NCBI RefSeq assembly: GCF_058153355.1
Contig: NZ_CM177019.1
Direction: 5' to 3' (one strand)
DNA length: 64,000 nucleotides
The notes under the pieces are model-generated. The model searched no databases. It worked only from the letters and a program-made list of their open reading frames with translations, and was not told the origin of the DNA. The position numbers and the translations under genes are program-made. Shown in pieces: positions 36,486 through 36,523 of the stretch (its first letter is position 1; each line of letters begins with the position of its first letter).

Positions 36486-36523
36486 CTAAGGTTGAAGGGG
36501 CGTTCCAGCCCCTTCAACCTTAG
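36486..36523. repeat. Perfect inverted repeat (15-bp stem, 8-nt loop) abutting the stop of the yabP-like ORF
   Basis: CTAAGGTTGAAGGGG cgttccag CCCCTTCAACCTTAG; there is no T-run on either side. Confidence 0.8.

Follow-up and report, generated by a model that had tools for sequence, protein, structure and literature searches.

The perfect palindrome at the 3' end of espY1 in Escherichia coli is probably a scar left by truncation of an insertion sequence and today a 3' hairpin of the mRNA

Where does a perfect inverted repeat lying directly against the stop codon of a horizontally acquired effector gene come from, and does it act on the mRNA that it ends? The locus that raises this question lies in a stretch of 64,000 nt (hereafter the window) of the E. 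coli chromosome, in which the order is rapA, rluA, a spacer, a minus-strand open reading frame, djlA and lptD. The palindrome consists of a left arm (36485..36501; GCTAAGGTTGAAGGGGC), a 6-nt loop, GTTCCA (36502..36507), and a right arm (36508..36524; GCCCCTTCAACCTTAGC); the arms are 17 nt each and 100% complementary, and 10 of the 17 pairs are G-C. A preliminary description, made from the letters of the DNA alone, had recognized arms of 15 bp at 36486-36500 and 36509-36523. These are correct, the palindrome being present at that place, and pairing runs 1 bp further at each end to give the 17 bp. The stem abuts the stop codon directly (TAA = 36527-36525, minus strand), rather than starting 1 nt past it as had been described.

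A perfect close inverted repeat of 17 bp is expected by chance about 3e-5 times in 64 kb; the preliminary description had called its 15-bp stem unusually long for a chance palindrome. It is the longest perfect close-spaced inverted repeat of the window, within which no second copy of it occurs; the runner-up is a canonical bidirectional terminator with 13 bp (13594-13623). For the isolated 40-mer hairpin the folding energy is -33 to -34 kcal/mol whichever strand is taken, and folds within a 101-nt context had z-scores of -6.3 to -7.2 relative to dinucleotide shuffles, with 0 of 200 shuffles as stable. Past 17 bp there is no significant symmetry (P = 0.12-0.43). A longer, degraded palindrome reaching into the espY1 C-terminus was considered and dropped, as the additional flank pairing seen in the folds was not significant. 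None of the Rfam 15 covariance models gave a match overlapping 36485-36524 at E <= 10.

The open reading frame that the palindrome adjoins (36525..37271, minus strand), first noted as yabP-like, is the intact T3SS effector gene espY1 (248 aa) according to the RefSeq annotation of orthologous loci. In K-12 it is split into yabP and yabQ, and the palindrome is unchanged there despite the broken gene. EspY1 carries the WEX5F family motif (WETLRHLF, aa 40-47) and pentapeptide repeats, for which the Pfam Pentapeptide match is marginal (20.7 bits), and it is reported to be a genuinely translocated effector (PMC6313403). Within the gene, 36653-36705 hold 3.5 tandem copies of a 15-nt unit, GGGTAGCACCGTCCA, that encode DGATL/V pentapeptide repeats. 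Strains differ in the number of these repeats and by an indel of 14-15 nt towards the 3' end (36560-36580), with proteins of 234-262 aa as the result. Through a change of the C-terminal frame, caused by a 1-nt indel near 36563, the O55:H7 allele has its stop 10 nt upstream of the TAA of the window, as the O157:H7 allele probably does also. A tblastn search of plasmids for espY1 paralogues returned mislabelled chromosomes and one 38%-identical paralogue, too distant for DNA comparison.

Together with its upstream region, the palindrome and an insertion sequence (IS) remnant, espY1 forms a variable segment (36118..37565) that replaces a REP/BIME spacer of 116-150 bp, and the alleles diverge exactly at the rluA stop and the djlA stop. 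Empty sites lacking the segment are represented by L005 (719-834), L006 and L007, and some 3,300 genomes, out of 5,426 complete ones of E. coli, are without the whole segment. The genes yabP and yabQ were reported among sigma-E-induced genes, as "genes downstream of djlA" (PMC2731931), which suggests that espY1/yabPQ can be transcribed by read-through from djlA. One metagenome contig (L024) has the block of espY1, palindrome and IS remnant (1-6739) joined at the djlA-stop position to a second block (6740-7955) with a P4-type tyrosine integrase, a DUF5507/DUF5508 protein and a 208-aa ORF. This join is in no complete E. coli genome, where the integrase block sits elsewhere and is never contiguous with espY1; the contig is therefore probably a chimeric assembly, and we rejected it as an alternative genomic context.

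The 360 bp between rluA and the palindrome have 82-87% identity to IS4/Tn5-family, ISEc13-like copies. They represent the 5' remnant of an IS50-like/ISEc13-family insertion sequence (36152..36510, plus strand), which ends at the palindrome and comprises a Tn5-like terminal inverted repeat (36152-36170, CTGCCTCTTGTACATAAAT) and a transposase pseudo-CDS (36328-36506, plus strand). PGAP labels the remnant a "transposase DNA-binding-containing protein", frameshifted and missing its C-terminus, and the N-terminus of the intact homologue matches Pfam Tnp_DNA_bind (4.5e-20). The transposase fragment is flagged in PGAP-annotated genomes but unannotated in the curated MG1655 record, NC_000913.3, which at 59280-59686 (window 36118-36524) has no ISEc13-like remnant, repeat or terminator annotated. 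Just inside the left end of the IS, a terminator scan identified the intrinsic terminator of rluA (36167..36188, plus strand), a hairpin followed by a T-tract. Since this terminator lies within the remnant, rluA takes it from IS DNA. The hairpin is conserved in other ISEc13-like copies, and at the IS end it probably blocked read-in transcription originally. The terminator hairpin of djlA (37508-37527) likewise comes from island DNA.

Three independent IS copies served for comparison with the window by alignment: L003 is a full-length ISEc13-like element, L004 an ST131 remnant, and L011 comes from a different Escherichia species. The left arm matches these copies at 15 of 17 positions (they read GCTCAGGTTGAAGGTGC) and is ancestral sequence from the N-terminal coding region of an ISEc13-like transposase. 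The loop is also homologous to the IS (GTACC in the copies) except for a 1-nt indel at A36507 in the pairwise alignment. IS homology thus covers the left arm and the loop and then ends at 36506-36510 (the BLAST end is 36510). Opposite the right arm all three copies have ...CCGCCTGATACGTAACC..., unlike the GCCCCTTCAACCTTAGC of the window, and at the matching IS position all read ...GGTGCGTACCGCCTGATACG... and lack an inverted repeat. Between 36524 and djlA, neither strand has any further IS sequence. IS homology is lost at the border of loop and right arm. Since the left arm is of IS origin and the right one is its perfect reverse complement, the latter repeats 14-17 bases of IS DNA backwards, right where the IS was truncated, and the palindrome marks that point. 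The preliminary description had offered, as one possibility, a relic of the event that delivered the gene; a rearrangement scar it is, specifically the truncation junction of an IS50-like/ISEc13 element.

Strain Z1323CEC0014 (L012) carries 16 strain-specific substitutions, between about 36335 and 36488, that turn its IS remnant into the ISEc13 consensus, evidently by gene conversion from another ISEc13-like copy in that genome. The tract stops within the left arm (A36488C), so that the left arm alone is altered and one stem pair is broken, which supports the asymmetry of the arms and the derivation of the left one from the IS.

We considered whether the palindrome is native to some IS lineage, and rejected this: a scan of genome contigs yielded one further IS copy, and this has no palindrome. 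We likewise rejected a fold-back palindrome as a general mark of ISEc13 truncation, as there is no junction palindrome at two other truncated ISEc13-family remnants (L004 and L021). A third locus, L022, is uninformative on junction palindromes, its IS homology running to the end of the stretch. Given the palindrome-free remnants, the event that made the palindrome is idiosyncratic.

What kind of event would leave one ancestral arm and its inverted copy at the end of a truncated IS? Most likely, in our view, DNA synthesis folded back or switched template, with a GGC/GCC microhomology to prime it. The IS50-like (ISEc13-family) element beside rluA would have lost everything past about codon 60 of its transposase, and at the break a DNA 3' end, ...GGGGCGTTCCAGCC, would have snapped back, with GCC (36508-36510) pairing to the complementary GGC (36499-36501). 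Extension of the folded-back end by 14 nt with the IS strand as template would have added 36511-36524 as new bases, giving a perfect 17-bp inverted repeat with an asymmetric 6-nt loop, and the new DNA end would then have been joined straight to the espY1 stop codon, this second joining step being assumed. The IS lineage that a fold-back origin implies would read ...GGGGCGTTCC(A)GCC.... In the window GCC is readable as IS sequence only with a 1-nt alignment indel, and no IS of exactly this lineage came to light; the dependence of the microhomology on this indel counts against our preferred explanation. As IS sequence never resumes, a switch out and back is excluded, and a break with fold-back and a second joining must be assumed. 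As far as we found, the origin of the palindrome, which we consider well resolved, appears not to have been described before.

To see what becomes of the palindrome in RNA, we drew on published 3'-end data from LB RNAtag-seq of K-12 (PMC10687069, Supplementary Data 3), where espY1 is the pseudogene pair yabP/yabQ, and converted coordinates as window = 95804 - K-12 position, which was verified on K-12 59280-59319. In these data yabQ has a "Primary" terminus at K-12 59309-59319 (dominant 59315), with a maximum U-tract of 2 and the hairpin as predicted structure. In the window the terminus falls at 36495-36485, with the dominant 3' end at 36489, so that the peak covers the last 10 nt of the descending arm of the hairpin and the dominant end lies 4 nt inside the stem base. 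Supplementary Data 4 of the same study lists for yabQ a 3'UTR of 37 nt, low expression and no nearby TSS, and from the last of these it follows that the hairpin is the end of an mRNA and not a separate sRNA. A K-12 mRNA 3' end at the 3' foot of the hairpin is thus shown in one published dataset, and it backs a 3'-end-defining effect of the kind expected from the mRNA 3'-end element that the preliminary description had proposed. The yabQ 3' end is absent from those tables of Adams et al. (2021) that we consulted. By contrast with yabQ, the primary 3' end of rluA in the same dataset (K-12 59610, signal 0.99; PMC10687069) corresponds to 36194, which is 6 nt past its stem and within the U-tract.

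How might the yabQ end arise? The hairpin (36485..36524, minus strand) is transcribed as the entire 3'UTR of the espY1/yabQ mRNA, folds at about -33 kcal/mol and lacks a U-tract. RNA polymerase would read through it and stop somewhere downstream, and 3'-to-5' exonucleases would trim the transcript back to the hairpin, which would block them. We infer the read-through, the trimming and a stabilising benefit by analogy with the work of Dar and Sorek (2018; PMC6061677), in which stable stem-loops without U-rich tails have precise steady-state 3' ends and shield transcripts from PNPase and RNase II, the protected transcripts terminating further downstream. A rut-like stretch, rich in C and poor in G, is absent immediately downstream of the espY1 hairpin: the C/G ratio is about 0.37-0.70 over the first 60 nt or so (three 78-nt windows) and rises modestly to 1.3-1.5 some 80-120 nt further on. 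The yabQ mRNA is also reported as among only four transcripts that are destabilised, not stabilised, in a mutant deleted for poly(A) polymerase I (pcnB; PMC11708017), which a hairpin-protection model does not predict and which speaks against it. As to its functional class, the hairpin is of an ordinary, already known kind, a 3' hairpin without a U-tract, and it reveals no new mechanism. With the junction and the RNA end considered, we regard it as probable that the palindrome is a junction scar now serving as an mRNA 3' hairpin.

Of the 5426 complete E. coli genomes, 2081 have the 101-nt region around the palindrome, each of them once. By megablast the 40-mer is identical in 2016 of the 2081 and has one mismatch in 2; the other 63 were missed with the 40-mer through a central mismatch, which leaves no 28-nt exact word, or through a deletion, e.g., in strain MB53. 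All 27 metagenome contigs with the palindrome represent the same locus, and a scan of species-representative genomes returned one contig with it (L010), which has an identical junction and is of E. coli type. That contig (JAIJJM010000692.1, 1.6 kb) was binned in a "Collinsella sp." MAG and corresponds to E. coli rluA, IS remnant and espY1; it is a contamination of the Collinsella bin. The espY1 3' region is found at this locus only, always beside the IS remnant. The search for other copies that the preliminary description had recommended therefore shows a single-copy palindrome confined to one locus, and we rejected the notion of a common dispersed repeat.

Natural variants of the hairpin occur. 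The loop reads GTCCCA in 2 metagenome contigs, and a 7-nt loop, CGTTCCA, is present in strain 99-3311 and 1 metagenome contig. Strain MB53 (L008) has a natural 44-bp deletion (about 36474-36517) that takes nearly the whole palindrome, with espY1 annotated as intact, and has in addition an IS1A inserted between espY1 and djlA. The MB53 allele is thus a ready-made natural deletion of the hairpin.

Does the hairpin matter to the bacterium, or is it a scar on which RNA ends happen to form? It is possible, though in our judgment doubtful, that the hairpin is a functional regulatory element, created de novo by one fold-back event and retained because it sets EspY1 expression. A neutral scar, whose RNA 3' end is incidental and without effect on espY1 expression or fitness, is a serious contender that we hold to be quite possible; it shares the origin and the RNA effect with our preferred explanation and differs only on adaptive value. 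Under neutrality the uniformity of the palindrome would come from recent common ancestry or from self-correction by template switching, and non-selective correction of inverted repeats to perfection is documented (PMC5941160). Mutation fully accounts for the origin of the palindrome, which is kept in K-12 with a broken gene and deleted in MB53 with an intact one. In a comparison of 14 diverse alleles that counted substitutions only, 0-1 sites vary within the palindrome where 3-4.5 are expected (Poisson P ~0.05), and 16-28% of 40-nt windows in the IS remnant are equally invariant, so no significant excess conservation is seen and additional sequence constraint or selection on the palindrome is not demonstrable. 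Against neutrality, 2016 of 2081 genomes share one and the same 40-mer while the espY1 3' region next to it spans 75% to 99% identity among genomes, the RNA 3' end at the hairpin is real, and such hairpins are generally protective (PMC6061677).

It is unlikely that the palindrome is itself a terminator, either a U-poor intrinsic one for espY1 or one acting on the plus strand or bidirectionally to guard espY1 from antisense transcription arising by rluA read-through or from IS-internal transcripts. Its stem is very stable, and its site between convergent genes is one where bidirectional terminators are common. The plus-strand tail, TTATTCT, is weakly rich in T (5 of 7, no run longer than 2) and looks terminator-like in a simple consensus scan, which qualifies the earlier statement that no run of T or A follows on either strand; that statement holds for the espY1 strand, where the tail after the stem, AGUAGCGUGG, begins AGUAGCG in RNA and has no U-tract. 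However, the RNA 3' end of yabQ lies inside the stem and not 7-9 nt beyond it, and we agree with the preliminary description that this is not a canonical intrinsic terminator. A stem of 17 bp also far exceeds typical terminator stems. As for the plus strand, rluA already ends about 300 nt upstream at its IS-derived hairpin (signal 0.99), no sigma-70-like promoter is predicted between the rluA terminator and the palindrome, and the LB RNAtag-seq sheet contains no antisense terminus labelled yabQ (PMC10687069).

The position of the dominant 3' end, 4 nt within a perfect duplex, is atypical for stalling of RNase II or PNPase and leaves room for endonucleolytic cleavage. It would fit a double-strand-specific endoribonuclease such as RNase III, cleavage detaching the hairpin and destabilising the mRNA, and the behaviour of yabQ in the pcnB mutant hints at non-standard decay. 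We nevertheless consider such a site very unlikely to be what the hairpin is, since a duplex of 17 bp is short for an RNase III substrate, the entries for yabQ and yabP in the tables of an RNase targetome study (PMC10667835) include no cleavage site at the hairpin, and only about 5% of termini were found to overlap RNase III sites by the authors of the 3'-end study (PMC10687069). In addition, the last base of the stem still falls within the peak (59309-59319), which fits fraying of the A/U-rich stem base.

IS50-family transposases form DNA hairpins at the ends of their elements, and a perfect dyad beside an IS could also be a protein-binding site (an operator or a transposase/recombinase target), as the preliminary description had suggested, or a native IS structure; we judge all of these highly improbable, as none of the IS copies examined, whether intact or truncated, contains the palindrome, which is set about 350 bp into the element, away from the 19-bp end sequence, has a non-palindromic loop (GTTCCA) where a replicated hairpin cap lacks an asymmetric centre, has 17-bp arms 6 bp apart that are far larger than typical operators, and occurs once per genome with a naturally variable loop.

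If the hairpin does set EspY1 expression, 17 nt that once encoded transposase became the hairpin that sets the mRNA 3' end of a horizontally acquired T3SS effector gene, and the stem abutting the stop codon could couple mRNA stability to translation termination. The locus offers a case, traceable base by base, of a stable mRNA 3' hairpin obtained from the unrelated coding DNA of a dying IS in one mutational step, and a concrete example both of horizontally acquired genes gaining 3'-end signals and of new RNA structure arising by template switching or fold-back. Both convergent genes end their transcripts on IS-derived DNA, rluA by way of the IS-end hairpin and espY1 by way of the truncation scar. 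The junction also explains a feature of the K-12 reference that had gone unannotated (59280-59319) and the same feature at the EHEC effector gene espY1.

Several known systems resemble the espY1 hairpin in part. With canonical intrinsic terminators it shares a stable, GC-rich stem-loop directly downstream of a stop codon; it differs in having no U-tract on the espY1 strand, a stem about twice the usual length and an RNA end that is not 7-9 nt past the stem. REP/BIME hairpins are 3' mRNA stabilisers between convergent genes and occupy the same niche, the rluA-djlA spacer of strains lacking espY1 holding such hairpins. They occur as many consensus-sharing copies per genome, whereas the palindrome has no similarity to the REP consensus, has one copy per genome and is of different origin. 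A native feature of IS50/ISEc13 elements would be expected at the same position in other IS copies, and these do not have it.

The closest functional relatives are the stem-loops of Dar and Sorek (2018). Like these, the espY1 hairpin is stable, has no tail rich in uridine and carries a precise steady-state 3' end (in a single dataset); its place is at the end of a horizontally acquired, AT-rich gene. It departs from them in having no rut-like stretch directly downstream, a 3' end 4 nt inside the stem, where theirs lie just after it, and a perfect 17-bp stem that abuts the stop codon, as a consequence of which terminating ribosomes would have to open the hairpin.

With regard to origin, the nearest parallel is with quasipalindrome-associated template-switch mutations (Ripley, 1982; the Lovett laboratory; PMC7202029). 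In E. coli, template switching is an established source of new inverted repeats and of perfected ones (PMC7202029), and preferential correction to perfection gives a non-selective route to conservation (PMC5941160). As in those mutations, only one of the arms at espY1 is ancestral; the other copies it exactly in inverted order and stands in place of unrelated ancestral sequence. A candidate for a short prior inverted microhomology at the switch point is GGC/GCC. Quasipalindrome mutations classically perfect an imperfect repeat and then rejoin the original template; at the espY1 palindrome, by contrast, 14 nt would have been copied from a 3-nt nucleus, and there is no return to the IS. The event would for this reason have been coupled to deletion and end-joining, and it resembles fold-back priming at a broken end.
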